DNA of 62,074 nucleotides, filler included, from 4 parts of 4 records of this genome joined end to end with filler, not necessarily neighbours in it; one strand, 5' to 3'; shown: positions 1-18,030, counted from the first letter of the whole stretch. A program made the numbers and translations. Notes: a model not told the origin generated them from the letters alone.

Positions 1-111
1 GTGCTGGCCGGGGCCATATTCGCGGCGGTTAACGGGCGATTTGGGGCGGCCCCAAATGTTTTCGCCCATGCGGCGGTCGATTTTGTACTTGGCAGACGTG
101 CGTTTGGTCAC
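1..111 (-). CDS. rpsD: 30S ribosomal protein S4, N-terminal part (truncated by window edge)
   Basis: Own translation from GTG at 111: [37 protein letters not shown], the alphaproteobacterial S4 N-terminus; SD AGGAAGGA upstream; missing from the ORF track. Confidence 0.95.
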
Positions 112-275
112 GGCTGATATCCTTCCTATAAATGCAGGCCTTGCGGCCAGAATGAAGGGCGTTGTCCTTTGGCATTGCACATGCGCGTGCATAACAATAC
201 CCGACAGGCGTCCCCTTGCGGGGGCCACCAACACCAATAGGGGGGGCTAATGGCGAATGCCCGCCCCGGTGTCAA
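112..275 (-). promoter_or_regulatory. rpsD promoter and structured 5' leader
   Basis: TTGACA on minus strand at 270-275; two GCAA-tetraloop hairpins (212-223, 137-148) and long-range complementarity 229-235/158-164. Confidence 0.55.
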
Positions 276-293
276 GCAGATTCGCCCCAGGCC

Positions 294-1367: not shown

Positions 1368-1475
1368 ATCTTTGCCTGTCTGTCTGCCTCAATTTTTTTA
1401 TTACCCTTAGGTTAGCAGAACCGCGCTGACGGGAAAAGTGTTTTTGTGATCAACGATAAACCTTTGATTGCAGGG

Positions 1476-2177
1476 TCATACCGACAGATAGGCATCGCGA
1501 ATTTCAGGTTGGGCGTTCAGCTCGGCCAATGTGCCCACAAATTTCTGGCTGCCGCCCTCGATAATCACCGCGCAATCGGCCACCGCGCGGGCGAAATGCA
1601 GGTTTTGTTCGGATAGCAGCACAGTCAGCCCCTCGGCTTTCAGCTGTTGGATCACCCGCGCCATTTGTTCAACAATCACCGGCGCGATACCCTCGCTGGG
1701 CTCGTCCAGCAGCACAAAGCTGGGGTTGCCCATCAAGGTGCGCGCGATGGTCAACATCTGCTGTTCCCCCCCCGAAAGCGCCTTGCCGCGGTTTCCCCGC
1801 CGCTCGGCCAGGTTGGGGAAAAGATCAAACAGCATGTCTTGGGTCCATGTCACCGTGCCATCGCGCGGGGCCTGGCGGCCCACCTCTAGGTTTTCCAGCA
1901 CGGTCAGATCGGTGAAAATGCGCCGTTCTTCGGGCACATAGCCCAGGCCCAGCTTGGCCACGCGGTGGGCAGGCCAGCCGGTGATATCTTGGCCCTGAAA
2001 GGTGACTTGGCCAGATTTCGGCTGCACCAGCTGCATGATCGATTTCATTGTGGTGGTTTTGCCCGCCCCGTTTCGGCCAAGCAACGCCACCACCTGCCCG
2101 CGCGCCACCTGAAAGCTGAGATTGTTCAGCACATGGGCCTTGCCATAAAAGCTGTTGATATCGGCCAGCTCAAGCAT
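1476..2177 (-). CDS. Branched-chain-type ABC transporter ATPase (LivF-like)
   Basis: GRNGAGKTT Walker A, LSGGEQQM, LLDEPSEG; ATG at 2177 overlaps upstream stop. Confidence 0.93.
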   Translation of the reverse strand: MLELADINSFYGKAHVLNNLSFQVARGQVVALLGRNGAGKTTTMKSIMQLVQPKSGQVTFQGQDITGWPAHRVAKLGLGYVPEERRIFTDLTVLENLEVGRQAPRDGTVTWTQDMLFDLFPNLAERRGNRGKALSGGEQQMLTIARTLMGNPSFVLLDEPSEGIAPVIVEQMARVIQQLKAEGLTVLLSEQNLHFARAVADCAVIIEGGSQKFVGTLAELNAQPEIRDAYLSV

Positions 2178-2946
2178 CTTGCACCTCGTCAGAATTGAAC
2201 ACCGTGCCACCGCCCAAATACACCTCTTGCACCCGGGGGTCGGTGCGCACCTCGGCCACGCTGCCATTGGCGATCAGCTGCCCACGGTTGAGCACCATGA
2301 TGCGATGCGAATGGGCAAAAACCACATCCATATCATGTTCGGTAAACAGCACAGATACGCCGCGCTCGCGCACGATATCGGCGGTCAGCTGCATCAACCC
2401 CACGCGTTCACGCGGGGCCATGCCGGCGGTGGGCTCGTCCATCAACAGCACATCGGGGTCATGGGCCAGGGCGATGGCCAGTTCGAGCCTTTTGAGATCG
2501 CCATAGGCCAGCACCGCGCAATGGCGCTCGGCCTGATCGGCCATGCCCACCATCTGCAGCAGCGCCAGCGCCTCGGCGCGATACATGCGGTGGGCATAGG
2601 GCAAAACGCTAAACACTTGCCGATGATGTGACAGCAGCGCCATCTGCACGTTTTCGATCACCGTCATCGAGGAATAAGTCGCCGTAATCTGAAAGGTGCG
2701 CCCCACCCCCAGCCGCCAAATGCGCCGCGGCGACAGGCCGGTGATATTTTGCCCATTCAGATGCACCGTGCCCTTGCTGGGCGGCAACTGCCCCATCAGC
2801 ATGTTGAAACAAGTGCTTTTGCCGGCACCATTGGGCCCGATCAACGCCAGCAATTCGCCTTTGGCCAGGCTAAAGCTGACATCATCCACCGCCACAATGC
2901 CGCCAAAAGATTTGGTCAGGCCGCGGGTTTCCAAAACTGTGGTCAT
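2170..2946 (-). CDS. Branched-chain-type ABC transporter ATPase (LivG-like)
   Basis: GPNGAGKST, LAYGDLKRLE, MDEPTAGM, EHDMD. Confidence 0.93.
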   Translation of the reverse strand: MTTVLETRGLTKSFGGIVAVDDVSFSLAKGELLALIGPNGAGKSTCFNMLMGQLPPSKGTVHLNGQNITGLSPRRIWRLGVGRTFQITATYSSMTVIENVQMALLSHHRQVFSVLPYAHRMYRAEALALLQMVGMADQAERHCAVLAYGDLKRLELAIALAHDPDVLLMDEPTAGMAPRERVGLMQLTADIVRERGVSVLFTEHDMDVVFAHSHRIMVLNRGQLIANGSVAEVRTDPRVQEVYLGGGTVFNSDEVQDA

Positions 2947-4805
2947 TTCTGGTCCTCCGTCTGGCGCAACAGGCCCAGCCGCTCGCCCGCCTTGCGCAGC
3001 GAGCCCACGATGCCATCGGGCGCCAGAATAACCACGCCGATAATCAGCAGGCCCAAGGCCAAACGCCAATATTCAAAGCGCACCAGCACCTCTTCGACAC
3101 CCTTAAAGAAGGCGCCCCCCACCAGCCCGCCAGCCAGCGTTTTCACACCCCCCAAAAACACCACAATCAGCGCATCGAAACTGCGGGCGATTTCCAGCTC
3201 GTTCGGGAAAACACTGCCTTTTGAGAACACAAACAAGCCCCCCGCCAGCCCGGCGATCATACCGGCAAAGCCAAAGGCCAGCAGTTGCACGCGCTTGGTG
3301 TTGATGCCTGTGGCCTCGGCCTGGCGGGCGCTGTCGCGCGCGGCGCGCAACGCATAGCCAAAGGGCGAATGCGCCACATGGCGCAGCGCCAGCATACCGC
3401 CCACCGATAAAATCAGAGCAAAGTAGAAAAAGATCGTGGTGTCGTTTAGCCAATCAGCAGGCCAGATATTGACCAGCCCATCATCGCCGCCCGTCACATC
3501 GCCCCATTGGAACACCAAGCTCCAGATCAGCTGGGCAAAGGCCAGGGTAAGCATGGCAAAATACACCCCCGTCAGGCGCAAACACACCCAGCCAATCAGC
3601 AGCGCTGCCAGCCCCGCGCCGATGGGCGCCAAGACAAAGGCCAGCTCCATCGGTGATTGCGCATGCGTCACCATCAGCGCCGCCACATAGGCGCCACCGC
3701 CAAAATAGGCCGCATGCCCAAAGCTGACCAAGCCCCCCAAGCCCAGCAGAAAATGCAGCGAGGCGGCAAAGAGGCAAAAGATCAAAATATCGGTCGCCAA
3801 AACCTGCGAAAAGCTAGAGCCATAAAGCGGCAGCGCCGCCAAGGCCGCAACGCCCGCCGCCACCAGCAGCCGCACCTGCAGGCCTGCGGGTTTGATCGGG
3901 CGCTCTGGCTCGCCCACTTGGCCATGCTCGCCCGCCACCTCTTCGCGGCCAAACAGCCCATAAGGGCGGATCATCAGCACCAGCACCATCACCACAAACA
4001 TCAGCACCAATGTCGATTGCGGCAGATAGGTTACGCCAAAGACGTTCAGCACCGAGATAATCACCGCCGCCAGATAGGCGCCCGGCAGCGACCCCATGCC
4101 ACCAATTACCACCACCACGAACACGGCTGTCAGAATGTTGAAATCCATCATCAGATCAGCGCCACCTTTTGGCAGCTGCAGCGCCCCGCCCAAACCGGCC
4201 AACGCCGTGCCCAGCGCAAAAACGCCCGTAAACAGCCACGCCTGGTTTACGCCCAGGGCGCCCACCATCTCGCGGTCTTGGGTGGCGGCGCGCACCAAAA
4301 TGCCCAGCCGGGTTTTGGTGATCAGATACCAAAGGCCCAGCGCCACAAAGGGGGTGATAACCAGCAAGGCGATGTCATATTTGGGAATAGGCTCGCCCAG
4401 AATAAACACCACGCCGCGCAGCCCCGGGGCACGCGGGCCCAGCAGGTCTTCGGGGCCCCAGATCATCAGCGCCAGATCCTGGATTACCAAGATCACGCCA
4501 AATGTGGCCACCAGCTGAAACAGCTCGGGCGCGCGGTAGACAGGGCGCAAAACCAGCATTTCCACGATCATGCCCAACAGGCCCACAGCCAGGCCCGCCA
4601 GCAAAATGGCCCCCCAAAACCCAACAGCCCCCGGCAACACCTGCATCAAGGTGTAGCCCACATAGGCGCCAATCATATAAAACGATCCATGGGCAAAATT
4701 GACAATGCGGGTTACGCCAAAGATCAGGCTAAGCCCCGATGCCACCATGAAAAGGGCGCCCGCATTGGCAAGCCCTGTCAACAGCTGTGCGATGAACAGC
4801 CCCAT
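2943..4805 (-). CDS. Fused LivH-LivM-type ABC permease
   Basis: N-half GLSLIFGVTRIVNFAHG (LivH) and C-half GLVSFGHAAYFG (LivM) in one 620-aa hydrophobic ORF. Confidence 0.92.
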   Translation of the reverse strand: MGLFIAQLLTGLANAGALFMVASGLSLIFGVTRIVNFAHGSFYMIGAYVGYTLMQVLPGAVGFWGAILLAGLAVGLLGMIVEMLVLRPVYRAPELFQLVATFGVILVIQDLALMIWGPEDLLGPRAPGLRGVVFILGEPIPKYDIALLVITPFVALGLWYLITKTRLGILVRAATQDREMVGALGVNQAWLFTGVFALGTALAGLGGALQLPKGGADLMMDFNILTAVFVVVVIGGMGSLPGAYLAAVIISVLNVFGVTYLPQSTLVLMFVVMVLVLMIRPYGLFGREEVAGEHGQVGEPERPIKPAGLQVRLLVAAGVAALAALPLYGSSFSQVLATDILIFCLFAASLHFLLGLGGLVSFGHAAYFGGGAYVAALMVTHAQSPMELAFVLAPIGAGLAALLIGWVCLRLTGVYFAMLTLAFAQLIWSLVFQWGDVTGGDDGLVNIWPADWLNDTTIFFYFALILSVGGMLALRHVAHSPFGYALRAARDSARQAEATGINTKRVQLLAFGFAGMIAGLAGGLFVFSKGSVFPNELEIARSFDALIVVFLGGVKTLAGGLVGGAFFKGVEEVLVRFEYWRLALGLLIIGVVILAPDGIVGSLRKAGERLGLLRQTEDQK

Positions 4806-4831
4806 AATTCCCCCCAGTCAGGCAGGCGTGG

Positions 4832-4866
4832 AAAAAGAAAACAGCCCCCACAGCGCAGGGGCTGTT
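4832..4866 (-). terminator. Intra-operon hairpin with U-tract after the substrate-binding protein gene
   Basis: Minus strand AACAGCCCC-loop-GGGGCTGTT followed by TTCTTTTT. Confidence 0.6.
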
Positions 4867-4881
4867 GGCCTCTGGTTTGGA

Positions 4882-6093
4882 TCAGTCGGTTTGCGGGCGC
4901 AGGGTGCGCACCACATCATCCGAAGGCAGGTAGTTGGCGCCGTCTTTATAGACCCAATCCACCATCACGCCTTTACCATCTTGCACCGTGGTGCGGCCCA
5001 CATAGGCGCCCATGGTCGATTGATGATCGATCGCGCGATAGGTGATCTGGCCCATCGGGGTATCGACATTGAGGCCTTTGAACGCGGCGCGAATGGCATC
5101 GGTTTCTGTCGAGCCGGCTTTTGCCAGCACCGCGGCGATGGATTGCGCAGTCATATAGCCCACGATCGAGCCCAGGCGGGGGTAGTCATTCCAGCGGGCC
5201 TGATAGGCATCGACAAAGGTTTTGCCCGGCCCATCGGTGATGGCATACCAAGGATAGCCCGTCACAATCCAGCCTTCGGGGGCTTCGGCGCCCAGCGGAT
5301 CCAGGTATTCCGGCTCGCCCGACAGCAGCCCCAAAACCGTGCGGTTTTGGAACAGCCCACGGTCGCCCCCTTCGCGCACCAGCTTGGCCAAATCGGGGCC
5401 AAAGGTGACGTTGTAAATGGCATCGGGCTTGGCGCGTTCCAGCGCCTGCACCTCGGCACCGGCATCGATTTTGAACAGCGCGGGCCACTGTTCGGCCACG
5501 AATTCAGCATCGGGCTGCAGGCGCAGCAGGTTTTCCTTGAACGCGGCCACGGCATCTTTGCCATAGGCATAGTTTGGCGCGATGGTGGCATAGCGTTTTG
5601 CCCCGGTTTTCGCCGCCTCTTCCGCCAGCATCGCCGCCTGCATATAGGTCGAGCTGCGCAAGCGGAACGTATAGGCATTGCCCGACGCCCAGGTGATCGA
5701 ATCTGCCAGCGGTTCAGAGGCCAGATAGACATAGCCCTTTTCCGCCGCCAGCGAGGAAATGGCCAAGCCCACATTCGACAAGATCGTGCCCGTGATCATC
5801 ACCGCGCCATCGCGCGTCATCAGCTCTTCGGCGATCTTCACGGCCTCGCTGGGCTTGCCCTGATCGTCGCGGTAGATGAATTCAAGCGGGCGGCCCAACA
5901 CACCACCGGCTGCATTGATTTCCTCGAGCGCCAATTCGATGCCGTTTTTATACGGCTCGGCAAAGGCTGCCATGCGTTTATAATGGTTGATCTCGCCAAT
6001 TTTGATAGGATCAGCCGCGAAACTGGCCACAGGTGTCAGCGCCAGCGCCGCGGCCCCCATCAGGCCTTTTAGGAAAGTTTTCCGTTTCATCAT
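4882..6093 (-). CDS. ABC transporter substrate-binding protein (Liv/PBP type 1 family), candidate pyridine-carboxylate binder
   Basis: Signal peptide ending ASFA-ADPIKIG; EEINAAGGVLGRPLE..RDD motif; operon context. Confidence 0.9.
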   Translation of the reverse strand: MMKRKTFLKGLMGAAALALTPVASFAADPIKIGEINHYKRMAAFAEPYKNGIELALEEINAAGGVLGRPLEFIYRDDQGKPSEAVKIAEELMTRDGAVMITGTILSNVGLAISSLAAEKGYVYLASEPLADSITWASGNAYTFRLRSSTYMQAAMLAEEAAKTGAKRYATIAPNYAYGKDAVAAFKENLLRLQPDAEFVAEQWPALFKIDAGAEVQALERAKPDAIYNVTFGPDLAKLVREGGDRGLFQNRTVLGLLSGEPEYLDPLGAEAPEGWIVTGYPWYAITDGPGKTFVDAYQARWNDYPRLGSIVGYMTAQSIAAVLAKAGSTETDAIRAAFKGLNVDTPMGQITYRAIDHQSTMGAYVGRTTVQDGKGVMVDWVYKDGANYLPSDDVVRTLRPQTD

Positions 6094-6132
6094 TTTCCCT
6101 CTCTGTTGTCTCTGGTTGCTTTGCCCTTGGCC

Positions 6133-7200
6133 TTAATCCAGCTGGACAAATGTTGGCCTTTCCGGCTCTCCAAGGTCTTCTATTGCCTCGGCTTCTATTA
6201 AGTCGCGAATACGCTTGCGATACACATTTGGTGCCTTGTCGATGGCAATGCGGATCGGTTTGCGCTTTTGCGGTCGCTGCTCTTCAATATGGATGGCCTC
6301 TAACACCTCTTTATCTTCGGCAAAGGCCACCCGGAACATCGCATCCATCTGCGCCGACGCCTCGTGATCGCCCACAGCCGTGTTGCGCAGGTGCATCCAG
6401 TAATCGATGGTGTAATCTTCGGTCACGGGGGTGACGAAATGCAACGCAAAGATGCGCACGCCCTGATCGCGGTTTTCCTCGGGCAGGTTCAACGCGGCAT
6501 CGGCACTGCCAAAATCGATCACCGCGGTAGATGGCAGATGCAGGTAGTAGTAGTGCCAGCGATCAACATTGCCGCTGAACCCACCGAATTTCTGGAAAAA
6601 CCCAACCGGCGGCGCATTGCGTATCCACCGCCAGGCGGCGATCACCTTGCCGCTGGTTGAGACATGCACTGGCACATCCTCGGATGCCGCGCTGCCCAGC
6701 GTGGTGGGGTGCACGAAACTGACATGCGCAGGATCGACCAGGTTTTCAGCCACATTCAGGTAATGGCCCCGAATATGCAGCCCGTCGCCATGGTGCACAT
6801 GCCAGTTCGGATCAGAAAATTCAGGCATATCGAAAATTTTGCTGGTGTCAGCCTTGGCCGGGTCGCCCATCCACACCCATACAATGCCGTGGCGTTCTTG
6901 CACCGGGTAGGCATCGACATAGGCGCTTTTGGGCAGGTTGTCTTGGCCCGGCACACGCACGCATTTGCCATCGCGCCCAAAGGTCATGCCATGATAGCCG
7001 CATTGTATGGTGTCGCCGATCCGCTTGCCGCGCGACAGGGGCAGTAATTTATGCGGGCAGCGATCTTCCAGCGCCACCAAGGCACCATCGCTGGCGCGGA
7101 AGAAAACCAATGTCTCGCCCACGATCGTCAGCGCCCGCAGCGCCCCGTCAAAATCGCGCGACCACCCTGCGACATACCAGGCATTTTTCACAAAGCTCAT
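6133..7200 (-). CDS. Rieske non-heme iron oxygenase alpha subunit, VanA-like (putative O/N-demethylase)
   Basis: NAWYVAGW start, Rieske ligands CPH..CGYH, mononuclear Fe ENLVDPAHVSFVH and FAED. Confidence 0.88.
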   Translation of the reverse strand: MSFVKNAWYVAGWSRDFDGALRALTIVGETLVFFRASDGALVALEDRCPHKLLPLSRGKRIGDTIQCGYHGMTFGRDGKCVRVPGQDNLPKSAYVDAYPVQERHGIVWVWMGDPAKADTSKIFDMPEFSDPNWHVHHGDGLHIRGHYLNVAENLVDPAHVSFVHPTTLGSAASEDVPVHVSTSGKVIAAWRWIRNAPPVGFFQKFGGFSGNVDRWHYYYLHLPSTAVIDFGSADAALNLPEENRDQGVRIFALHFVTPVTEDYTIDYWMHLRNTAVGDHEASAQMDAMFRVAFAEDKEVLEAIHIEEQRPQKRKPIRIAIDKAPNVYRKRIRDLIEAEAIEDLGEPERPTFVQLD

Positions 7201-7265
7201 GGCGAACCTGCCCCTGCTGTCTGCGGGCAAACCACATTGCCCTAAGGTCAGTGGGCACCAAAATA

Positions 7266-7283
7266 TTGTTAGCTGTCAAACAA
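7266..7283. promoter_or_regulatory. Palindromic operator, copy A (putative MarR/NicR site)
   Basis: TTGTTAG-CTGT-CAAACAA between Rieske gene and marR; contains minus-strand TTGACA; similar copies at 15028 and 15154. Confidence 0.7.
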
Positions 7284-7365
7284 TTTTTTCAGGAAAGCAT
7301 CGGAAAGATGGACCAAGGGCAACTTTCGTGAAAAACTAACACCAAGCAGGGACCACAGGACCACA

Positions 7366-7788
7366 ATGACCGCAGCAGAGCAACACCCTTACCAGCTAGA
7401 AGACCAGATTGGCTTCAAATTGCGGCTGGCAAACCAGCGCCACCTTGAACTTTTTGCGCGCATGATGCCGCAGGTCACACCCACGCAATTTGCGATTCTT
7501 GCAAGGCTGCGCGAAACGGGCCCGATGTCGCAAAACCACCTGGGGCGGTTGGTGGGCATGGATGCCGCCACAACCAAGGGCGTGATTGACCGGCTGAAAA
7601 CCAAAGGGCTGGTTGAAAGCCGGCGCAACGAAACCGATATGCGCCGGCTTGATATTTCGCTCAGCCCGGAAGGTGCGGTTTTTGTGGAGAACGCGGTTGA
7701 AACCGCCCGCGATATCACCCAAGCGACCTTGCGCAACCTGACCCCGCGCGAACAAGAGCGGCTGCTGGCCCTGCTTGACAAGCTGTAA
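7366..7788 (+). CDS. MarR-family regulator (NicR-like)
   Basis: YQLEDQIGFKLRLANQRH, TPTQFAIL, SQNHLGRLVGMDAATTKGVIDRL, DMRR wHTH. Confidence 0.9.
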   Translation: MTAAEQHPYQLEDQIGFKLRLANQRHLELFARMMPQVTPTQFAILARLRETGPMSQNHLGRLVGMDAATTKGVIDRLKTKGLVESRRNETDMRRLDISLSPEGAVFVENAVETARDITQATLRNLTPREQERLLALLDKL

Positions 7789-7832
7789 ACGCCCCCGCGC
7801 GTTTTAGGGCGCGCCGGGGGTGGGCCGCGCCA

Positions 7833-8417
7833 TTAGCGCAGCCCGTCTTTACCTTCGGCTTCGGCATGGGTCAGCCCGCCCACACGCGGCAAGGGGCGGC
7901 CGCTGTCGGTTACGGCCACGGCCACCAATATCTCGTTTGCGCGCGGCGCATCGTTCATGCGCACTTCGACCCCGTCGAAATGGCTGCGCACGTAGGCTGC
8001 ATCTTTGTGGCCCAAGGGCACATCCAAATCTTGGCCCGGCCCACCCATCTTTTTCGAACTGGGCACCAGGGCTGCGCCTTTTTCCACCGCCTGCCGCAGG
8101 GGGGCGCCCAATTTGGGGTGCAAAATGGCGGCGGCATGTTCCAATTCGCCATTCTCGCCCACCATCGCCGCCTTGCCATAGCTTTCCGCCTGCTCGGGTG
8201 CGATGCCCAGCGCCGCCACGCATTTTTGGCCCAAAAGTCCGCCCAATTCGGCACCAATATCGCTGAGCAGCCCTAAATCTTGCTGGAAAACCCCGGCAAA
8301 GGGGTTTTTGATCACCGCCACGGCCACGGCCTTGCGGGTGGGGGGGCTGATCTGCTGGCCCATTTCCTGGTGGGTTTCTTCAACCCAGACCGCCAGCTTG
8401 CGAATCTCTGCGCTCAT
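7833..8417 (-). CDS. DUF1185 / 'amino acid synthesis' family protein
   Basis: AVIKNPFAG, SYGKAAMVGENGELEH, YVRSHFD, DAPRANE. Confidence 0.85.
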   Translation of the reverse strand: MSAEIRKLAVWVEETHQEMGQQISPPTRKAVAVAVIKNPFAGVFQQDLGLLSDIGAELGGLLGQKCVAALGIAPEQAESYGKAAMVGENGELEHAAAILHPKLGAPLRQAVEKGAALVPSSKKMGGPGQDLDVPLGHKDAAYVRSHFDGVEVRMNDAPRANEILVAVAVTDSGRPLPRVGGLTHAEAEGKDGLR

Positions 8418-9007
8418 CTTAAACCGTCCTCTCCCTTGATCTCGCTTGCGGCCAAACCACCGGCGCGGTTGTGCACGCGTGCACCGCTGGTCATGACCAA
8501 AATCACCGCCATTTCATGGGCACGCGGGGCATCGTTCAGCCCCACTTCGATGGCATCGAAATGGCTGCGCACATACGAGGCATCGATATGCGTCACCGGC
8601 ACATCCAGCCGCGTGCCCACGCCCCCCACCTTTTTGGTCGAGGGCACAATGGCCTTGGCCCCGCCCAGCACCTCGCGCATGGCATAGCCACCGGGCGCAT
8701 GCCACAGGGCGCCATGCTCGATCTCGCCTTCGGCCCCGATGATGGCGCCTTTTCCATAGCCCTGCACCAAGGCCACATCCCCCCCCATATCTGCCAACAG
8801 CCTTTTGGCCATATCCACGCCTAAGGGTTTCAGATCTTCCATAAAGGGCTGAATGTCTTCGACATAGGCGCCTGCAAACGGGTTTTCGATCACCGCCATC
8901 ACATAGCCCCGGCGCAAGGGCACGTTGGCCCGCGGTCCGCCCTCGTGGTAGATCTCTTCGATCGATGTCACCAATTTGCGGATTTTAACCTGTGGCATGG
9001 TGTGCAT
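8414..9007 (-). CDS. DUF1185 / 'amino acid synthesis' family protein (paralog)
   Basis: AVIENPFAG, GYGKGAIIGAEGEIEH, YVRSHFD, DAPRAHE; start may be 8998. Confidence 0.85.
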   Translation of the reverse strand: MHTMPQVKIRKLVTSIEEIYHEGGPRANVPLRRGYVMAVIENPFAGAYVEDIQPFMEDLKPLGVDMAKRLLADMGGDVALVQGYGKGAIIGAEGEIEHGALWHAPGGYAMREVLGGAKAIVPSTKKVGGVGTRLDVPVTHIDASYVRSHFDAIEVGLNDAPRAHEMAVILVMTSGARVHNRAGGLAASEIKGEDGLR

Positions 9008-9893: not shown

Positions 9894-11389
9894 GCGCGCC
9901 CCTTTCGGGCATGAATGGCGCGGTGGCGATGATGGGAATGCGGGTCTGGCCCACCGCCCGGCAGCACCTTGCGAATATCAGGGTTAAGCACGCTTTCCAC
10001 CGGGCGCACATGGTCCATATGGCCGCCAAGTGCTGCGTAATCTTCGCTGCGCAGGGTAAATTCGATCGGCGCCACCAAGGCAGGCGTGGGCACATACCCG
10101 AACGCGTTGGTGGGCATTTCCAGCACATCCGCCATAAAGGTAATGCCGCCGCCCGGCCAAACATAGGCCTCGGCGCCACCGCAGCTGACATAGGTCAGCG
10201 CCTCTTTGACCGACCGGGTCAGGCGCACCGGGTTTTCTGTAACGCCGGCGCGCAGGCTGCCCCCTGCCCCGCCCATGAACACCACCGAACACAGCGAAGG
10301 TTCGCAGTTTTCCGCGATACGCTCGCAGGTGGCCAGCAGGGGGGCTGAAATTTCCGCAGGCTGGGGGTGCAGCGCCGCGTCCAGCACGAAATAGGCCCAT
10401 TGTTCGCCGGTGGTCGATACCATCAGCAGCCGCTGGCCTGGCCATGCCAATTTAGGGTCTGCCGGGCGCAAAATGGTCAGCGGGTCTTCGACATCGGTGC
10501 CCCCCCAGCCGGTGCCCGGCTCGGCCACCTGGAAATAGCGCCCCGGGGTCGAGCGGCGGCCATTGATGCGAATACCCGAGGGGCGCATGCCCAGCTGCTT
10601 GCCCGCCTCGTGTTCTGTTAGCACGCCGGTGATGTGATCATCCACCACGATCACCTCGTCAACATGGCCCTGCCATTGCTTGGCAAACATGCCAATCGTG
10701 GCAGACCCGCAGCCAACGCGCATCAGCTTTTCGGGCACGCCGTTGATAATGGGCGGCTGGCCTGCCTGCACCACAACCTGCGCGCCACCATCGATATGCA
10801 TTTCCACCGCATCGCGGTTGCACAGTTTCAACAGCGCATCGCAGGTCACACGGCCCTCTTTTTTCGAGCCCCCCGTCAGGTGTTCAACCCCGCCAAGCGA
10901 CAGCATTTTCGAGCCGTATTCCGAGGTCATGACATGGCCAATCGCCTCGCCATCCACCCGCACGACCGCGCGTTCGTGGCCAATAAAGCGATCGGTGTCG
11001 ATTTTCACCTTCACGCCGCAATAGCTGAAAATGCCCTCGGTCACGACGGTGACCATATCCACCCCATCGATGCTTTGCGACACGATAAACGGCGCGGGCT
11101 TGTAATCGGGGTAGGTGGTGCCAGCGCCCACCGCGGTGACAAAGGTGCGATGGCCCTGGATCACATCACCATCCCAGTCTTGGGCATCGCCCGCCTGGGG
11201 CAGAAATTCAACCGCTTGCGCGCCGCTTTCGATTACGGTCAGCGGATCCAGCCGCACCAATTGGCCATCGTGATTGGCATAGCGGTCGCAGGCGCCGGCC
11301 TTGCCTTGGGCGATGTAGCACATCACCGGGCAGGCATCGCAGCGTATCTTTTCCAGGTCGCGGCGTGTGGGGGTGCTGTCGTCAGGCAT
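9890..11389 (-). CDS. 6-hydroxynicotinate reductase-like Fe-S flavoprotein
   Basis: KIRCDACPVMC...GACDRYAN Cys cluster, GAGTTYPDYKPAPFIV, VTEGIFSYCG, RVGCGSAT, VDDHITG, GGAGGSLRAGV; next to Mo-hydroxylase and enamidase. Confidence 0.85.
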   Translation of the reverse strand: MPDDSTPTRRDLEKIRCDACPVMCYIAQGKAGACDRYANHDGQLVRLDPLTVIESGAQAVEFLPQAGDAQDWDGDVIQGHRTFVTAVGAGTTYPDYKPAPFIVSQSIDGVDMVTVVTEGIFSYCGVKVKIDTDRFIGHERAVVRVDGEAIGHVMTSEYGSKMLSLGGVEHLTGGSKKEGRVTCDALLKLCNRDAVEMHIDGGAQVVVQAGQPPIINGVPEKLMRVGCGSATIGMFAKQWQGHVDEVIVVDDHITGVLTEHEAGKQLGMRPSGIRINGRRSTPGRYFQVAEPGTGWGGTDVEDPLTILRPADPKLAWPGQRLLMVSTTGEQWAYFVLDAALHPQPAEISAPLLATCERIAENCEPSLCSVVFMGGAGGSLRAGVTENPVRLTRSVKEALTYVSCGGAEAYVWPGGGITFMADVLEMPTNAFGYVPTPALVAPIEFTLRSEDYAALGGHMDHVRPVESVLNPDIRKVLPGGGPDPHSHHRHRAIHARKGRA

Positions 11390-14162
11390 GACCAACCTCC
11401 TTTAAGGCGGCGCGCAGGCGCGCAGGCGTCACGGGCAGCTTGCGCAGCTGCGCCCCGGTGGCCCGGCCAATGGCATTCAAAATGGCCGGCGCGGTGGGGA
11501 TCAGCGCATGCTCGCCCAGCCCTTTGGCACCATAGGGGCCGTGGGCATCGGGCTCTTCGATGATCAAGGTTTCGATCGGGGGCACATCGCCAAATGTGGG
11601 CATCAGGTAATCATGCAGGTTTTCGGTGCGCCCGGGGAGATATTCCTCCATCAAGGCCATGCCCAGCCCCTGGGCCACGCCGCCCTGCACCTGCCCCTCT
11701 ACCAATAGCGGGTTGATCGCACAGCCCACATCATGGGCTGCCACGATCTGCAGCACACGGGTTGTGCCCAGTTTGGTATCCACCTCGACCATCGCCAGAT
11801 GCGCGGCATAGCCATATTGCGCATAGGGCGCGCCCTGGCCGTTTTCATCCAGCGGCAAGGTGGGCGGGTCATAGGTTTCTTGCACGCGCAGCACATAGCC
11901 TTCGGCATCAACGGGCAGATCGGCCAGGCGCAGCCTATGGGGGCCTGTGGCATCTTGCACCACCAGGTCCATACCTTGCCCCGTGCCCAGCACAATGCGG
12001 CTGTCATCGGCGGCATTCACCTGCGCCAGCAGCAGCCGGCGCAGCGCCTCGCCCGCCAGGCGGGCGGCATTTCCGGTGACAAATGTTTGCCGCGAGGCCG
12101 AGGTTTTGCCCGCATCAGGGGTGCGATCGGTATCGCCATCGATCACCGCAATCTGCGCCACATCCACCCCCAAAGCCCGGGCAAAAATTTGCGGGATCAC
12201 CGTGTTAGATCCTTGGCCGATATCCGCCGCCCCCTGGTGCAGCACCACCGTGCCATCGGCCCGCACCCCGGCCTTTATGGTCGAGGGGTTGGGCAGCGAG
12301 GTATTGCCACAGCCATACCAGCCCCCCGCCACGCCAACGCCACGCCGCAGCACGCCCGCCTGGGCGTTAAAGGCCTGCGCCTCGGCGTTCAGCCGCGCCC
12401 ATGCCGGGCGCAGCGCCTGCAAACAGGCCTTTATGCCAACACCTTGCTGAAACACCTGCCCGCAAATCGTGGGGGTGCCATTTGTCAGTGCATTCTTGAT
12501 GCGAAATTCCAGCGCGTCTTGGCCCAGCTTATCGGCCAGCGCGTCAAACAACACCTCTTGGGCCACCGCCGATTGCGGCACGCCAAAGCCGCGAAACGCG
12601 CCGGCGGGCGTGCCATTGGTATAAACACCCTGCGCCCGGGCGATATAATTGCGCAGCGCATAGGGCCCCGACGCATGGATAGGCACGCGGTTGGCCACCG
12701 TCGGCCCCCAGCTGGCATAAGCGCCGGTGTTGAACTGCCCCTCAAATGCAATCGCCGCAAGCGTGCCATCGGCCTGCGCCCCCACCTTTAGCGAAATTTG
12801 CGCCGGGTGGCGCTTGGTGGTCGAGGCCATGGTTTCCTGGCGCGAATAGGTGATGCGCACCGCCCGCCCCAGCCGCAAGGCCGCCAAGGCCACAAAGGGC
12901 TGGAACGAGATATCGATTTTCGAGCCAAACCCACCGCCCGTGGCCGATGGCAGCACGCGGATGCGATCCAGCGGCAAGGCCAAAATGGGCGCCAGCGCTT
13001 CTTTATCCATCACTGGGGCCTGGGTGCAGCCATAGATATGCAGCCGCCCATCCACCAGATCGGCCATGCCGGCCTCGGGCTCGATATAGCCATGCTCGAC
13101 ATAGGATGTTTCAAACTGGCCCTCGACCTGCACATCAGCCGCGGCCATCGCGCCATCGGCATCGCCGTGTTTTACAAAGCCCTGGCACAAAATATTGCCC
13201 TCGTGGCCCGGGTGCAGGCGGGGGGCATCGGGGGCAGTGGCGGTGGCCACATCTAAAACCGCGGGCTGCGGATCCCAGGTGATGGGGAATTGGCCCGCAT
13301 CAAACTGCGCCATCGCATCAGCCGGGCCCACCACGGCGGCCACGGCCTCGCCCTTAAAGCGCACGGTGTCGCTGGCAAAAACGGGCTGGTCGATAAACCC
13401 CGGGATCACCCCAAAGAGGTTGCGCCCGGGAATATCTGCCGCTGTCAGCACCAGCGCCACCCAAGGGTTGGCCGCCTGCCATGCCTGCAGATCGCCCAAG
13501 CGGAAGCGCGCATGGTGATGGGGGCTGCGGATGACCCGCAGCACCAGCGTATCGGCCGGGGCGATATCATCGCCAAACCGCTCGCGCCCGTCCAGCTTGG
13601 GCCGCCCATCGAGCCGCGCAATGGCCTGGCCCACATCGCCTGTGCTGGGCGGCTGTGGCGGCATGCCCCCCACGCCGGCATCGGCCACCGCATCGATGAT
13701 TTTGCGATAGCCCGTGCAGCGGCACAAAACCCCGCCCAGCGCATCCTCGACCTGCGCGGCGGTGGGGCTGGGCACGGCGCGCAACAGCGCCATGGCCGCC
13801 ACCATCATGCCCGGCGTGCAAATGCCGCATTGGGCCGCCTGATGGGCATGGAAACTATCGGCCAAACGCTGCGCCAGCGGATCATGCGCCACCAGCCCGG
13901 CTTGGGTTTCCACCGAGGCGCCGGCCACGCGGGCGGTGGGCATCAGGCAGGCGCAGACCGGGGCCCCATCGACCAGCACGGTGCAGGCACCACAATCGCC
14001 GGCATTGCAGCCGATTTTCACATCACGGCTGCCCAGCCTTTCGCGCAGCGACTGCGACAGCCGCTCGCCCGGGGGGGCACTGACCGCAACGCTTGCACCG
14101 TTCAGGCGAAATTCGGTGGCGCAAGGATCTGCGCCAAAGGGGGGGGTGGCATTATCTTTCAT
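11382..14162 (-). CDS. Xanthine-oxidase-family Mo-hydroxylase, fused 2x[2Fe-2S] + molybdopterin subunit (nicotinate dehydrogenase-like)
   Basis: GCNAGDCGACT, QCGICTPG, CRCTGY; GGGFGSK, AFRGFG, QVQGG, KGLGE catalytic Glu. Confidence 0.88.
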   Translation of the reverse strand: MKDNATPPFGADPCATEFRLNGASVAVSAPPGERLSQSLRERLGSRDVKIGCNAGDCGACTVLVDGAPVCACLMPTARVAGASVETQAGLVAHDPLAQRLADSFHAHQAAQCGICTPGMMVAAMALLRAVPSPTAAQVEDALGGVLCRCTGYRKIIDAVADAGVGGMPPQPPSTGDVGQAIARLDGRPKLDGRERFGDDIAPADTLVLRVIRSPHHHARFRLGDLQAWQAANPWVALVLTAADIPGRNLFGVIPGFIDQPVFASDTVRFKGEAVAAVVGPADAMAQFDAGQFPITWDPQPAVLDVATATAPDAPRLHPGHEGNILCQGFVKHGDADGAMAAADVQVEGQFETSYVEHGYIEPEAGMADLVDGRLHIYGCTQAPVMDKEALAPILALPLDRIRVLPSATGGGFGSKIDISFQPFVALAALRLGRAVRITYSRQETMASTTKRHPAQISLKVGAQADGTLAAIAFEGQFNTGAYASWGPTVANRVPIHASGPYALRNYIARAQGVYTNGTPAGAFRGFGVPQSAVAQEVLFDALADKLGQDALEFRIKNALTNGTPTICGQVFQQGVGIKACLQALRPAWARLNAEAQAFNAQAGVLRRGVGVAGGWYGCGNTSLPNPSTIKAGVRADGTVVLHQGAADIGQGSNTVIPQIFARALGVDVAQIAVIDGDTDRTPDAGKTSASRQTFVTGNAARLAGEALRRLLLAQVNAADDSRIVLGTGQGMDLVVQDATGPHRLRLADLPVDAEGYVLRVQETYDPPTLPLDENGQGAPYAQYGYAAHLAMVEVDTKLGTTRVLQIVAAHDVGCAINPLLVEGQVQGGVAQGLGMALMEEYLPGRTENLHDYLMPTFGDVPPIETLIIEEPDAHGPYGAKGLGEHALIPTAPAILNAIGRATGAQLRKLPVTPARLRAALKEVGHA

Positions 14163-14997
14163 TGGCGGCCTCGGCTGCTGTCATCAGGGCGCGCGATACC
14201 AATTCGCGCACCGCATCTAGGCGGTATTCGGCACTGCCGCGCACATCGGCAATGGGGGCCAGGCCCGTCAGCGGCGCCTGCGCCACACGTGCGGCAAATT
14301 CATCTGGGGCGGCACCCTGCAGCGCCGCCTCGAGCGCGCCCAAACGCTGCGCCACGGCCGAGCAGGCGCCAACAGCCACGCGGGCATCGGCCACGCGGCC
14401 CGCCTGCAGGCGAAGGATGGTGGCCACCATGGCGATGGAAATAACCAGATATTTGCGCGCGCCCAGCTTGGCAAAGGCGGCGCCGGTGCCCGGGGCCGCC
14501 CATGTATCGGGAATATCGATGGCTTGCAGCAATTCGCCGCTTTGCAACGCGGTTTGGCGCGCACCGGTCACAAACTGCGCCAAAGGCAGGCGGCGGGTGC
14601 CCGTGGCCGATACCAGCTGCACATGGGCATCCAATGTCAGCAGCGCAGGCATGCCATCGGCCGCAGGCGAGGCGTTGCACAGATTGCCCCCAATCGTGCC
14701 GGCGTTTTGAATTTGCACCGAACCCACCTCGCGCCCGGCGGCCTGCAGCCCGGCAAAGGCTGGCGGCAGATCGGCGTTTACAATCGCGCTCCAGCTGGTG
14801 GCGGCCCCAATGCGCCAGCCCCCATCGAGACGCGCAATGCCGCTAAACTGTGGCAGCCGGGTGATATCGAGCAGGTTTTGCGGCACCGGGCCATCGCCCC
14901 GCGCCGGATACCAATCGGTGCCCCCCGCAATAACACTGGCCCCCTGTGCCAACGCCTGAAATGCGTCTTCCACCCTGTCAGGACGGTGATATCCCAC
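14152..14997 (-). CDS. Mo-hydroxylase FAD-binding subunit
   Basis: YHRP start (GTG 14997), IAGGTDW, QIQNAGTIGGNLCNASPAAD, DVRGSAEYR. Confidence 0.9.
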   Translation of the reverse strand: MGYHRPDRVEDAFQALAQGASVIAGGTDWYPARGDGPVPQNLLDITRLPQFSGIARLDGGWRIGAATSWSAIVNADLPPAFAGLQAAGREVGSVQIQNAGTIGGNLCNASPAADGMPALLTLDAHVQLVSATGTRRLPLAQFVTGARQTALQSGELLQAIDIPDTWAAPGTGAAFAKLGARKYLVISIAMVATILRLQAGRVADARVAVGACSAVAQRLGALEAALQGAAPDEFAARVAQAPLTGLAPIADVRGSAEYRLDAVRELVSRALMTAAEAANER

Positions 14998-15027
14998 GCC
15001 AAATGCCCCCTGTCTGCCTGTTGCAAT

Positions 15028-15045
15028 TTGTTTGTGTACAAATAT
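15028..15045. promoter_or_regulatory. Palindromic operator, copy B
   Basis: TTGTTTG-TGTA-CAAATAT upstream of the Mo-hydroxylase operon; minus-strand TTGACA at 15067-15072. Confidence 0.65.
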
Positions 15046-15153
15046 CAAGCAGCCCAAGTGGGATTCTGTCAATTGCTTTCATCACCCACCCCGCACCTGG
15101 CATGCAAATCGCGCAGAATACCGCCTTGCAAAGGCTTGCCAGATCGAAATTTC

Positions 15154-15171
15154 ATGTTAGCGTTCAAATAA
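15154..15171. promoter_or_regulatory. Palindromic operator, copy C
   Basis: ATGTTAG-CGTT-CAAATAA overlapping candidate -10 TAGCGT (15158-15163; -35 TTGCCA 15136-15141) of the enamidase gene. Confidence 0.65.
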
Positions 15172-15188
15172 ATTTCAGGGAGAGCACC

Positions 15189-16382
15189 ATGGCAGATGCA
15201 GCCGCAAGCGAAAGCGCCTCGGGAAAATTGGTTATCCGCAACATTGGGCTGATGCTATCGGGCAAGATCGAAGACCCGATCTATGATGCCGATTGCCTGA
15301 TCGCGGTGGATGGCAAAATTACCCAATGGGGCCGCGAAAAAGATTTGGATACCGAGGGCGCAGATACGCTGATCGATGCCCATGGCACCACCTTGGCCCC
15401 CGGCCTGATCGACAGCCATATTCACCCGGTGGTGGGCGATTACACCCCCCGCCAGCAGCAATTGCACTGGATCGACAGCACATTGCACGGTGGTGTGACC
15501 ACGATGATTTCTGCCGGCGAGGTGCATATGCCAGGCCGGCCCAAAGACGTGGTCGGACTTAAGGCCATGGCGATTGCCTCGCAGCGCTGGTACGAAAATT
15601 TCCGCCCCTCGGGCGTAAAGGTGCACGCCGGCGCCCCGGTGATCGAACATGGCATGGTCGAGGAAGATTTCGCCGAGCTGGCAAAATCGGGTGTAAAACT
15701 GCTGGGCGAGGTGGGGCTGGGCACCGTCAAAGACGGAAAAACCGCCCGCCAGATGGTGGATTGGGCGCGTAAATATGGCATCCAAAGCACCATCCACACC
15801 GGCGGCCCCTCGATCCCCGGGTCAGGGCTGATCGATGCCGATATGGTGCTGGAAACCGGCACCGATGTGGTGGGCCATATCAACGGTGGGCATTCTGCCT
15901 TGCCCGATGATCAAATCGTGTGCCTGTGCGAAAATTGCAAAGCCGCGCTAGAGATTGTGCACAATGGCAACGAACGTGCCGCACTGCTAACGCTGAACAC
16001 CGCGCGCGAATTGGGCAAGCTGGATCAGCTGATTTTGGGCACCGACGGGCCTGCCGGATCGGGCGTGCAGCCCTTGGGCATTATGCGCATGGTGGCGATG
16101 CTGTCGGCCTTGGGCAATGTGCCGGCTGAAATTGCCTTTTGCTTTGCCAATGGCAATACGGCACGGCGGCGCAACCTGGATTGCGGGTTAATCGAGGCGG
16201 GGCGCAGCGCCGATTTTGTGCTGATGGATCAGGCCCAGCACGCGCCCGGCAAGCATATTTTAGACTCGGTCGCCCTGGGCAACTTGCCCGGTGTCGGCAT
16301 GACCATTATCGATGGTGTTGTGCGCAGCCAACGCAGCCGCAATACGCCCCCCGCCTGGCGGATACCCGAAATCATCGGCTAG
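15189..16382 (+). CDS. Enamidase (amidohydrolase family)
   Basis: PGLIDSHIHPVVGDYTPRQ, SAGEVH, GEVGLG, HTGGPS, GHINGG, GTDGPAGSG, SRNTPP. Confidence 0.88.
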   Translation: MADAAASESASGKLVIRNIGLMLSGKIEDPIYDADCLIAVDGKITQWGREKDLDTEGADTLIDAHGTTLAPGLIDSHIHPVVGDYTPRQQQLHWIDSTLHGGVTTMISAGEVHMPGRPKDVVGLKAMAIASQRWYENFRPSGVKVHAGAPVIEHGMVEEDFAELAKSGVKLLGEVGLGTVKDGKTARQMVDWARKYGIQSTIHTGGPSIPGSGLIDADMVLETGTDVVGHINGGHSALPDDQIVCLCENCKAALEIVHNGNERAALLTLNTARELGKLDQLILGTDGPAGSGVQPLGIMRMVAMLSALGNVPAEIAFCFANGNTARRRNLDCGLIEAGRSADFVLMDQAQHAPGKHILDSVALGNLPGVGMTIIDGVVRSQRSRNTPPAWRIPEIIG

Positions 16383-16419
16383 GCCCCAGGGCCCGTGGCC
16401 ATAACCTGTAAGGGCCTAT

Positions 16420-17929
16420 ATGACACGGCTTTTTTCTACGAAAAACAGGCCCTTGCATGCAGGCCCCTACCCTAGCGAAAAGCTGCGCCGCGGGCCTATG
16501 CCTGCGCTGCAGGCGATTGGCGCTGAAACCGCGGTGCCCTTTTGCCAGCCCGAGGCGCCCCATAGCCTGATCAATGCCATGACCGAGGCACAGGCCATGT
16601 TGGATATCTTGCGCAGCGGGGCTGCAAACCCTGCCCGCGCCACCATTCCAAACTGCCCACTGGAACGCGCCCAACATCTGAAATCTTTTGCCTATTTTTG
16701 CGATGCCGATATGGCGGGCATTTGTCAGCTTCCAGCAGATGCCCTGCGCGATGAGCCGCTGGAAAACCCCAATATCGGGCCTTTGGTGCAGCGTTTGCGC
16801 ACCGAACAGACAAAATCGCTTGCCGCAGGGATAGATCAGACCATGGCCGAGCTGCGCGAACAGCTTAGCGCGCCGGCCACCCCCATCGATGCCCACAGCC
16901 ATGCCTTGGTGCTGCTTTACGCCAACCCGCGCGCCCCCAAAAAGGGCGAGCCGGGCTATGACTGGATTGCCAATAGCGCCCGCCAACGCGCCTGTTTGCG
17001 CAGCGCGGAAACCGCGGTTGTCTTGGCAGAATATCTGCGCGTTTTGGGCTTTGAGGCCCGCGCGCATACCGGCGCTGCCAGCGATGTGGTGATGGCGCGC
17101 CTGGCGGTGGCGGCGGGGCTGGTAGACCACGACTTGCAAGCGCCGTGGCTGGGGGAAAACTATGGGCTGGCGGTGGTGACAACCACCATGCAGCTGGCCT
17201 GCGACCAGCCGCTGGCCCCCATGTCCACACAGCCGCGGTTTTGGCTGCACGGCGCAGGCTGGCAGCTGGGGCTGGCGGGCAGTGCCAAGGGCGGCCACAG
17301 CGCCGATCCTTACGCCAAACGCCCCTTTGCACTGGGCCCGCACCCGTTTGAAACCCTCAAGCGGGTGGATCACCCCACCACCTATATCGATGCCCCCAAT
17401 GTGGCGCGGGTGCCCAAACGCACCGATATGTTCGCCCGCGCCCAATTTGGCGATATGGGGCGCAAATTGCAAAAAGGCGCAGCAGGCGGGCGGTATGTGC
17501 GCAAACAGGCCCCCGCCTTGGCGCAGCGGCGTGCCTTGGGCGCGTTTGTGTTGCTGCAAGATGGGCCCGTGGCCCGCCCGGCCGCGCCCCACGACCCCGC
17601 CAAGATCGCCGACAATCTGAAAGCGGCCAGCTATTATCTGGGCCTTGATGCTGTTGGGCTGTCGCACTGCCCCGAATGGGCGTGGTATTCGCATGATGCC
17701 TTGGGCCAGCCCATTACGCCCCCCCATGATCAAGCCATCAGCATGATCGTCGATCAGGGCTATGAAACGATGGAGGGCGCCTCGGGCGATGATTGGATCA
17801 GCGTGGCGCAATCCATGCGCGCCTATTTGCGCTTTTCCATTCTGGGCGCGGTGATTGCTGCGCAAATCCGAAATTTGGGCTACAGCGCCCGCGCCCATAC
17901 GGTGATGGATGGCGAGGTGCTGCAACCGC
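16420..17929 (+). CDS. Catabolic B12-dependent reductive dehalogenase (NpRdhA/BhbA type), 3'-truncated at contig end
   Basis: RLFSTKNRPLHAGPYPSEKL N-terminus; duplicated cobalamin-domain motifs (LKSFAYFCDADMAGIC / LKAASYYLGLDAVGLS; LRVLGFEARAH / IRNLGYSARAH); GASGDDWISVAQSMRAY; no Tat signal. Confidence 0.87.
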
Positions 17930-18029
17930 NNNNNNNNNNNNNNNNNNNNNNNNNNNNNNNNNNNNNNNNNNNNTTAATTAATTAANNNNNNNNNNNNNNN
18001 NNNNNNNNNNNNNNNNNNNNNNNNNNNNN
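17930..18029. other. Artificial contig linker
   Basis: N-run + TTAATTAATTAA (stops in six frames) + N-run. Confidence 0.98.
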
Positions 18030-18030
18030 G

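Follow-up and report, generated by a model that had tools for sequence, protein, structure and literature searches.

Do the genes for a Rieske oxygenase and a reductive dehalogenase (RdhA) that accompany a roseobacter cluster for nicotinate breakdown belong to that pathway, or do they sit beside it by chance of gene order? The cluster occupies positions 1476-17928 of a window of 62,074 nucleotides (the whole stretch of DNA analyzed, four parts of four records joined end to end with filler). It comprises genes for a molybdenum (Mo) hydroxylase, a 6-hydroxynicotinate reductase (Hnr), an enamidase (Ena), and an ATP-binding cassette (ABC) importer, arranged around the gene for a MarR-family regulator. 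The best explanation of the locus overall, and one that we consider probable, is a MarR-repressed reductive (Hnr/enamidase) nicotinate island to which a Rieske gene has been added as an accessory and RdhA as a passenger.

The interval 1476-17928 belongs to a Lutimaribacter-like roseobacter, an organism represented solely by metagenome bins. Because N runs around TTAATTAATTAA at 17929-18030 mark an artificial contig join, the window is a concatenation, and bases 1-17,928 are a single contig end. Gene calls were made from an open reading frame (ORF) listing together with Pfam and NCBIfam searches of the window proteins, and these recovered every gene that a sequence-only reading of the window had named in three operons around marR. 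Using the Hnr protein as a query and keeping one genome per species, we obtained 80 loci that span Rhodobacteraceae to Bradyrhizobium, Xanthobacteraceae, Dongia, and Inquilinus, and their gene maps were drawn by tblastn. Co-occurrence was assessed in 401 evenly drawn Rhodobacteraceae genomes, with Hnr in 139 and enamidase in 58.

The Rieske gene (6133-7200, minus strand) is the first of the importer operon and encodes a VanA/DdmC-type Rieske non-heme-iron monooxygenase (Pfam Rieske, 2e-20; VanA_C, 5.6e-47). Orthologues at 64-99% identity were found in 26 of the 401 genomes, with a clear gap to paralogues at 44% or less. Hnr is present in 24 of these 26 genomes (odds ratio 27, Fisher p 3.6e-10, kinship ignored). 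The two exceptions, G365 and G307, carry copies of 64-65% identity, which are also the sole copies outside a cluster. Read from the other side, only 24 of the 139 Hnr genomes carry the orthologue, about one in six family clusters. Among the 80 Hnr loci the gene was found in 13 (L002, L004-L009, L011-L014, L028, and L043), and three more loci end before that position.

In every examined locus with flanking DNA, the Rieske gene lies directly 5' of the cluster's gene for a substrate-binding protein (SBP), and what surrounds this pair varies. The window and its relatives show MarR<>Rieske, L143 and L144 show Ena<>Rieske, L145 has Hnr-Rieske, and Sagittula together with most of L131-L138 has AA_synth-Rieske, placed within the hnr operon. 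Given the co-occurrence and the constant SBP adjacency, the Rieske gene is a true, lineage-restricted accessory of roughly a sixth of the Hnr clusters in the family, physically tied to the SBP gene. The sequence-only reading had attached both the Rieske gene and rdhA to the hnr cluster; our neighborhood survey bears out the first, which is recurrently syntenic with hnr, and not the second, which rarely is. A contig from RNA libraries (4276-7307) spans livHM, the SBP gene, the Rieske gene, and the spacer beyond it. For this and the other RNA-library contigs, depth was not taken as an expression rank, a contig is not proof of a single transcript, and uncovered parts are uninformative.

Rieske-bearing nicotinate clusters were also seen on 146-404 kb plasmids, one of them typed as conjugative, of cultured Sulfitobacter pontiacus, other Sulfitobacter spp., Pseudosulfitobacter, and Sagittula stellata E-37. 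Since this version sits on plasmids of cultured roseobacters, the cluster is mobile and strains for testing exist. Lutimaribacter degradans (L003, 13592-14715) has kept marR, the operator between marR and the importer operon (operator A, below), and the importer; about 600-730 nt stand in place of the 1065-nt Rieske gene, an apparent loss.

What might the enzyme do? Its metal motifs are intact (CPH..CGYH and DPAHVSFVH), with the carboxylate ligand inferred from an aligned ED pair. Against solved structures it matched the O-demethylases DdmC (dicamba; 4.6e-39) and then 7QWT (3.6e-38), the substrate of which we take to be guaiacol, followed by the hydroxylases SxtT/GxtA and the N-demethylase NdmA (1e-18); KshA was also among the PDB matches. 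The structure 7QWT is listed as GdmA (PMC12445004). The phmmer comparison with DdmC gave 137.6 bits over the full length, and the protein is only weakly similar to any characterized member. Protein Atlas names for it are generic ("ring-hydroxylating dioxygenase"). Like VanA/DdmC, GdmA, and NdmA/B, it combines Rieske and VanA_C domains with the CxH..CxxH and DxxHxxxxH motifs, and demethylase chemistry is plausible. Unlike those systems, its gene is embedded in a nicotinate cluster and has no VanB/NdmD-type reductase gene beside it.

We favor a role as N-demethylase of trigonelline or of its 6-oxo derivative, because the enzyme class carries out such chemistry, the product would be the pathway substrate, and trigonelline is the obvious marine methylated nicotinate. 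The Rieske enzyme would oxidatively demethylate a methylated nicotinate, our best guess being trigonelline or the 6-oxo form made by the hydroxylase, and the product would enter the core route. Put more strongly, this may be the first identified demethylase of trigonelline (or of N-methyl-6-pyridone-3-carboxylate), opening a demethylation-first route into the Hnr pathway distinct from TgnAB and homABCD; we offer that version tentatively, as a possibility more likely wrong than right. A bolder extension would add, in Lutimaribacter, 5-halo-6-hydroxynicotinate as an extra entry point through read-through rdhA. A literature search covering few subscription journals returned no bacterial trigonelline demethylase, no Rieske gene in Hnr clusters, and no work linking these genes to the growth of roseobacters on nicotinate or trigonelline. 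Nor is a trigonelline demethylase known in plants or mammals, according to one source (PMC10963276).

Several points weigh against this reading. In both known routes for N-methylpyridine carboxylates, TgnAB for trigonelline and homABCD for homarine, ring opening comes first and demethylation later (PMC13236597, PMC8269262), so a demethylation-first route is without bacterial precedent. No gene for a partner reductase of the VanB or phthalate dioxygenase reductase (PDR) type was found in the window cluster or, plant-type ferredoxin-NADP reductase (FNR) apart, in the annotated S. pontiacus and Sagittula clusters. PDR-like genes were found elsewhere in the genome bin. FNR was considered as the partner reductase and rejected, as only 2 of the 17 FNR loci (in 96 loci) have a Rieske gene. 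Beyond the Rhodobacteraceae, an SBP and a permease of this type occur where no Rieske gene is present. The importer need not carry the Rieske substrate. Finally, the co-occurrence p values treat genomes as independent.

The same synteny would also fit a Rieske enzyme that hydroxylates the pyridine ring or a side chain, either converting nicotinate to 6-hydroxynicotinate in an O2-dependent and Mo-independent manner or serving as a funnel for picolinate, isonicotinate, or 6-methyl- or methoxy-nicotinate. The VanA family includes ring and methyl hydroxylases (TsaM, going by the abstract of its paper, is said to be an example), and SxtT/GxtA and KshA are among the PDB matches. In addition, the SBP is close to 3I45 and of a type that also occurs without a Rieske gene, which suggests import of nicotinate itself. 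However, the best-scoring solved relatives are demethylases, and the Mo hydroxylase is retained in most Rieske clusters with enough flank, which leaves no obvious need for a second 6-hydroxylase. We regard hydroxylation as unlikely, and N-demethylation remains the role that we favor.

The second added gene is rdhA. Positions 16420-17928 (plus strand) hold the 5' 503 codons of a self-sufficient RdhA-PDR fusion (NpRdhA, 4RAS/6ZY0, E 3.5e-83). The proposed enamidase-RdhA unit is thus real to the extent that an RdhA-like frame follows ena, and incomplete in that the gene is cut after codon 503, without its Fe-S and reductase parts, because the contig ends at 17928. A 98%-identical full gene in the bin L001 (1778-4975) encodes 1065 aa with RdhA, 4Fe-4S dicluster (Fer4_16/Fer4_7), DmmA-like_N, and Fer2 domains and matches NpRdhA (3.8e-157) and phthalate dioxygenase reductase 2PIA (8.6e-55). 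From these fusion domains and matches we assign it to the self-sufficient BhbA/JtRdhA type. We rejected an orphan status for the gene, the 62-63% matches having arisen because full-length proteins exceed the length filter of the search. The protein resembles BhbA, JtRdhA, Ros_A3X954, and NpRdhA in its RdhA domain, in equivalents of S422, Y426, K488, and R552, and in two [4Fe-4S] clusters, and the L001 orthologue shares with self-sufficient catabolic RdhAs a C-terminal phthalate-dioxygenase-reductase-like module for flavin mononucleotide, nicotinamide adenine dinucleotide, and a 2Fe-2S center. It differs from other self-sufficient RdhAs in that, in Lutimaribacter alone, the gene follows the enamidase gene.

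RdhA is carried by 159 of the 401 family genomes, namely by 61 of 139 with Hnr and 98 of 262 without it (p 0.24). It adjoins the enamidase gene in 3 of the 31 genomes with both (G001, G058, and G003, each from the Lutimaribacter group) and in 4 of the 80 Hnr loci (L001, L016, L002, and L003). In 20 other genomes, crude gene calling over 6 kb on each side of rdhA revealed no nicotinate (nic) gene and no neighbor common to more than two loci. The 12 active-site positions of NpRdhA (PMC7565698) were mapped onto RdhA alignments. S422, Y426, K488, and R552 are conserved, the first two as S465 and Y469 in the window copy and the last two as K531 and R595 in the L001 copy. Six of the 12 differ from NpRdhA (F290M, K307G, F310Y, P311V, A419V, and N452V), and essentially the same replacements are shared by all 22 orthologues compared from Rhodobacteraceae, of which 19 lie apart from nic genes. 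A few pocket positions vary (M/L at F290, V/A at P311, and a single Arg at K307), without separating Lutimaribacter from the rest. Ortho-bromophenols are debrominated by the relatives JtRdhA and Ros_A3X954, published relatives take bromine or iodine off ortho-halophenols, and such enzymes are widespread among roseobacters (PMC10463259, PMC13101508). The window RdhA is, most likely, a debrominase of the bromophenol type that is read through from ena and not a dedicated pyridine feeder; it would lie 38 nt 3' of ena in Lutimaribacter by chance of gene order.

Within the genus Lutimaribacter, rdhA has been gained or lost. In L. pacificus (L006, 3919-5040), ena is followed by a 590-bp gap, an 88%-identical TetR gene, and recO. 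That genome showed no rdhA remnant at the ena locus and no RdhA-domain match to the query anywhere. TetR was considered as RdhA's own regulator and rejected: it accompanies rdhA in all three Lutimaribacter loci that could be read (L016 is incomplete) and in none of the 20 other RdhA loci, and it stays by ena in L. pacificus, where rdhA is missing.

Could both added genes nevertheless feed one regulon, as the sequence-only reading proposed, with the Rieske enzyme demethylating trigonelline or homarine and RdhA dehalogenating halopyridine carboxylates such as 5-halo-6-hydroxynicotinate made by the Mo hydroxylase? The points in its favor that also count against a mere passenger concern rdhA. The 38-nt gap between ena and rdhA contains no terminator detected in our scan, and operator B (below) would control ena. 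The adjacency, kept in L001, L016, L002, and L003, has persisted at 72-98% identity through three to four species of Lutimaribacter, and an RNA-library contig from 15178 past 17928 bridges both genes. For these reasons rdhA may well be co-induced by nicotinate. The substrate is chemically sensible too, since 5-halo-6-hydroxynicotinate is an ortho-halo-hydroxy acid of the kind that the conserved S422, Y426, K488, and R552 would fit. A dehalogenase even has precedent in the same pathway, in the form of Cch2 of strain SG-6C, a 6-chloronicotinate chlorohydrolase shown by experiment to feed 6-hydroxynicotinate into an Hnr-type pathway (PMC3511419). Cch2, however, is a hydrolytic enzyme of the amidohydrolase superfamily on an integrative and conjugative element, whereas the window RdhA is a B12 reductive dehalogenase known from its sequence. 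The scheme also has against it that rdhA stands apart from nic genes in 28 of the 31 genomes with both and in all 20 other loci, that it shows no association with Hnr, that the pocket residues fail to tell Lutimaribacter from 19 unlinked orthologues, and that a GC-rich hairpin separates ena from rdhA in L002 and L003. Homarine, for its part, is degraded via homABCD without prior demethylation (PMC13236597). The claim that RdhA is a pyridine feeder is not supported by these data, and we see little chance that the two-feeder scheme as a whole is right.

Equally improbable is a Rieske gene that spread as a selfish or neutral passenger of one plasmid-borne cluster version and has no role in pyridine breakdown. 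In favor of such a passenger, the gene is confined to 24 of the 139 Hnr genomes, carriers include Sulfitobacter, Sagittula, and Pseudosulfitobacter plasmids, and L. degradans has lost the gene yet retained the importer and operator A. Its 64-99% identity, its place by the SBP gene held through at least three rearrangements (MarR<>Rieske, Ena<>Rieske, and AA_synth-Rieske), its intact metal ligands, and the restriction of copies outside a cluster to the two most divergent (64-65%) all point the other way.

The Rieske accessory is attached to a core that proved sound. The hydroxylase-hnr operon, on the minus strand, begins with the flavin adenine dinucleotide (FAD) subunit of the Mo hydroxylase (14152-14997; Pfam FAD_binding_5 and CO_deh_flav_C). 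Alignment with the M-G-F-H-R-P starts of relatives moves its start to GTG 14997 from the TTG at which the ORF is listed (to 15072). There follows a fused [2Fe-2S] and molybdenum cofactor (MoCo) subunit (11382-14162; Pfam Fer2, Fer2_2, Ald_Xan_dh_C, MoCoBD_1, and MoCoBD_2) of a xanthine dehydrogenase (XDH)-family hydroxylase, a putative nicotinate 6-hydroxylase, for which every NCBIfam equivalog scored below cutoff. Pfam domains thus show an XDH-family Mo hydroxylase with FAD, 2Fe-2S, and MoCo parts adjoining hnr. The Hnr homologue itself (9890-11395, 501 aa) takes its name from NCBI entries for 80-99% identical proteins; none of the Pfam-A or NCBIfam models matched it. Matching proteins in the database number more than 8000, many of them under the name 6-hydroxynicotinate reductase, and the family looks to be without a curated profile. 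The window Hnr is 69-73% identical to other Bradyrhizobiaceae members; its kinship to the Eubacterium barkeri enzyme comes only via strain SG-6C (Bradyrhizobiaceae), whose cluster Hnr is 42% identical to that of E. barkeri (PMC3511419).

Downstream of hnr lie a UPF0280 family gene (8985-9893; NCBIfam NF003322, 354.9 bits against a cutoff of 290) and two AA_synth (PF06684/DUF1185) genes, protein 2 (8414-9007; Pfam 7e-69) and protein 1 (7833-8417; Pfam 1.6e-71), the last of the operon. Neighboring genes of this operon overlap by 4-23 nt. By tblastn, the Hnr-UPF0280-AA_synth module recurs in nearly all of the 80 loci, usually with the SBP/fused-permease/ATPase importer, MarR, and enamidase close by. 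From Rhodobacteraceae to Bradyrhizobium, UPF0280 and one or two AA_synth genes follow hnr almost without exception, and they look like obligatory Hnr partners. On the plus strand, the gene for the enamidase, a 1,4,5,6-tetrahydro-6-oxonicotinate amidohydrolase (15189-16382), encodes a homologue of the E. barkeri enzyme (PDB 2VUN, E 1.7e-108, residues 13-395 on 3-385).

By homology with these systems, the ABC importer would take up nicotinate, the FAD/FeS-Mo hydroxylase would convert it to 6-hydroxynicotinate, Hnr with its linked UPF0280 and AA_synth proteins would reduce this to tetrahydro-6-oxonicotinate, and the enamidase would open the ring to give 2-formylglutarate and ammonia. The earlier assignment of hydroxylase, Hnr, and enamidase under MarR to a nicotinate core holds. 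The core (hydroxylase, Hnr, enamidase, ABC importer, and two unknown proteins) has previously been reported from Proteobacteria, a Hnr cluster with an ABC transporter, putatively for nicotinate, plus two unknown proteins being kept in Azorhizobium caulinodans ORS571 and other Proteobacteria (PMC3511419).

The E. barkeri Ndh/Hnr/enamidase, ORS571, and SG-6C clusters share with the window a Mo hydroxylase, Hnr, and enamidase. What sets the window apart from all three is the Rieske gene heading the importer operon, rdhA after ena, and the lack of any gene for an aerobic fate of 2-formylglutarate. Its hydroxylase also has two subunits (FAD and fused FeS-Mo), unlike that of E. barkeri, which is said, in the 2006 work of Alhapel et al., to have four.

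Three further features of Hnr clusters emerged from the survey. Enamidase was missing at E<=1e-80 in 82 of 139 Hnr-positive Rhodobacteraceae genomes and at 1e-5 in 5 of 5 checked. Genes for HyuA/HyuB (hydantoinase/oxoprolinase) adjoin the Mo hydroxylase on the S. stellata E-37 plasmid (L147, 1985-5724) and in three other loci, and make candidate substitutes for enamidase that would open the tetrahydro-6-oxonicotinate lactam in an ATP-dependent reaction. A gene for plant-type FNR stands in 17 of 96 Hnr loci (for example, L146, 5439-6245, and L147, 9478-10305), mostly beside that for enamidase, and its product probably supplies Hnr with low-potential electrons in aerobes; no FNR gene is present in the window cluster.

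How would such an island be controlled? Between the importer and hydroxylase-hnr operons lies a gene for a MarR-family repressor of the BpsR type (7366-7788, plus strand; Pfam MarR 3e-13), whose product matches PDB 2NNN (E 5.2e-34) and Bordetella BpsR 6PCP (E 6e-22). BpsR contacts 6-hydroxynicotinate (6HNA) through Tyr15, His23, Arg26, and His32 (PMC6837509). The aligned window protein retains three of the four, as Tyr9, Arg20, and His26, and has Phe17 in place of His23. Like BpsR and 2NNN, it has the MarR fold and a gene divergent from a nic operon. Apart from the Phe, it differs from BpsR in having an operator specific to this roseobacter group and in controlling a reductive and not the aerobic maleamate route.

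Pattern matching and footprinting by conservation place three 18-bp operators: A (7266-7283), a pseudo-palindrome between the Rieske operon and marR; C (15028-15045), which overlaps the -10/start region of the hydroxylase-hnr promoter; and B (15154-15171), 17-35 nt 5' of the enamidase start codon. In the 62 kb, TGTTWGNNNNCAAAYA has three exact matches (7267-7282, 15029-15044, and 15155-15170); shuffled sequences gave a mean of 0.02, with three or more matches in none of 100. With one mismatch allowed, sites A and C were matched on the reverse strand as well, and nothing else was gained. As TGTTWGNNNNCAAAYA was derived from the three sites themselves, independent support comes from conservation in relatives. 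Operator A is present in 13 of 13 MarR-Rieske (or MarR-SBP) spacers of relatives (Lutimaribacter, Lacimonas, Planktotalea, HTCC2083, Actibacterium, and metagenome bins), and operator B in 15 of 15 relatives with an Ena-FAD spacer in the locus (L028 ends before it), and the sequence flanking both diverges. A conserved TTGACA of the hydroxylase-hnr promoter (15072-15067, minus strand) lies 5' of operator C, which is preceded by a conserved TTGACAGAATCC (-35 box) in 14 of 15 aligned loci and by TTGACAGA only in L014. Across 1.78 Mb of relatives' loci, a shorter motif is almost confined to these promoter positions, and a one-mismatch form stands about 245 nt upstream of hnr in nine Bradyrhizobium loci. 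General scans of the cluster for promoters and terminators returned 0 and 1 promoter-like matches, which is the shuffle level.

The palindrome had been described as preceding each of three operons. The three copies are real and conserved, yet they occupy just two divergent spacers, and none precedes rdhA. In the model that these sites suggest, a MarR dimer would bind three operators covering four units (marR, Rieske-importer, hydroxylase-hnr, and ena) and 6-hydroxynicotinate would release it. Its alignment with BpsR and its retention of three of the four 6HNA contacts make MarR the probable binder of A, B, and C, with 6-hydroxynicotinate as its probable effector.

The remainder of the importer operon, also on the minus strand, comprises genes for a periplasmic SBP, putatively for nicotinate (4882-6093; Peripla_BP_6 1.5e-65), which is very close to PDB 3I45 (E 8.6e-144) and kept beside Hnr clusters; a fused LivH-LivM permease (2943-4805; Pfam BPD_transp_2 in two stretches, 1e-70), with 51-93% identical copies beside Hnr in many Alphaproteobacteria among the 80 loci (tblastn); a LivG/UrtD-like ABC ATPase (2170-3069; Pfam ABC_tran and BCA_ABC_TP_C); and a LivF/UrtE-like ABC ATPase (1476-2267; Pfam ABC_tran 1.6e-32), the last of the operon. 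The entry 3I45 is said to contain bound nicotinate, a point given no weight here. The true starts of both ATPases are probably internal, and the second, UrtE/LivF-like in NCBIfam at scores below the cutoffs, is syntenic in relatives. Just past the operon, a Hint_2-domain protein (294-1367, minus strand; E 9e-55) has a homologue at the same place in L002, L003, and L018. Beyond the join, a glnE fragment, whose NCBIfam match begins at profile position 164, is 5'-truncated, belongs to another contig, and is unrelated to the cluster.

Contigs 95-99% identical to positions 1400-17928 (runs X14-X17) came from marine metatranscriptome libraries of 3 studies and, in 7 studies, from 13 DNA runs. Across seawater samples, this organism or a close relative is widespread.

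A Rieske oxygenase locked to a nicotinate cluster in cultivable roseobacters (Sulfitobacter pontiacus, Sagittula stellata E-37, and Pseudosulfitobacter) is a directly testable candidate for a missing activity, and the defined operator with its BpsR-like repressor offers a handle for reporter assays. Chance in the order of genes most likely accounts for the dehalogenase link, and the widespread roseobacter RdhA stays with bromophenol cycling. Trigonelline is a major phytoplankton metabolite. If the demethylation-first route is true, it would funnel this abundant phytoplankton betaine into the Hnr nicotinate pathway.

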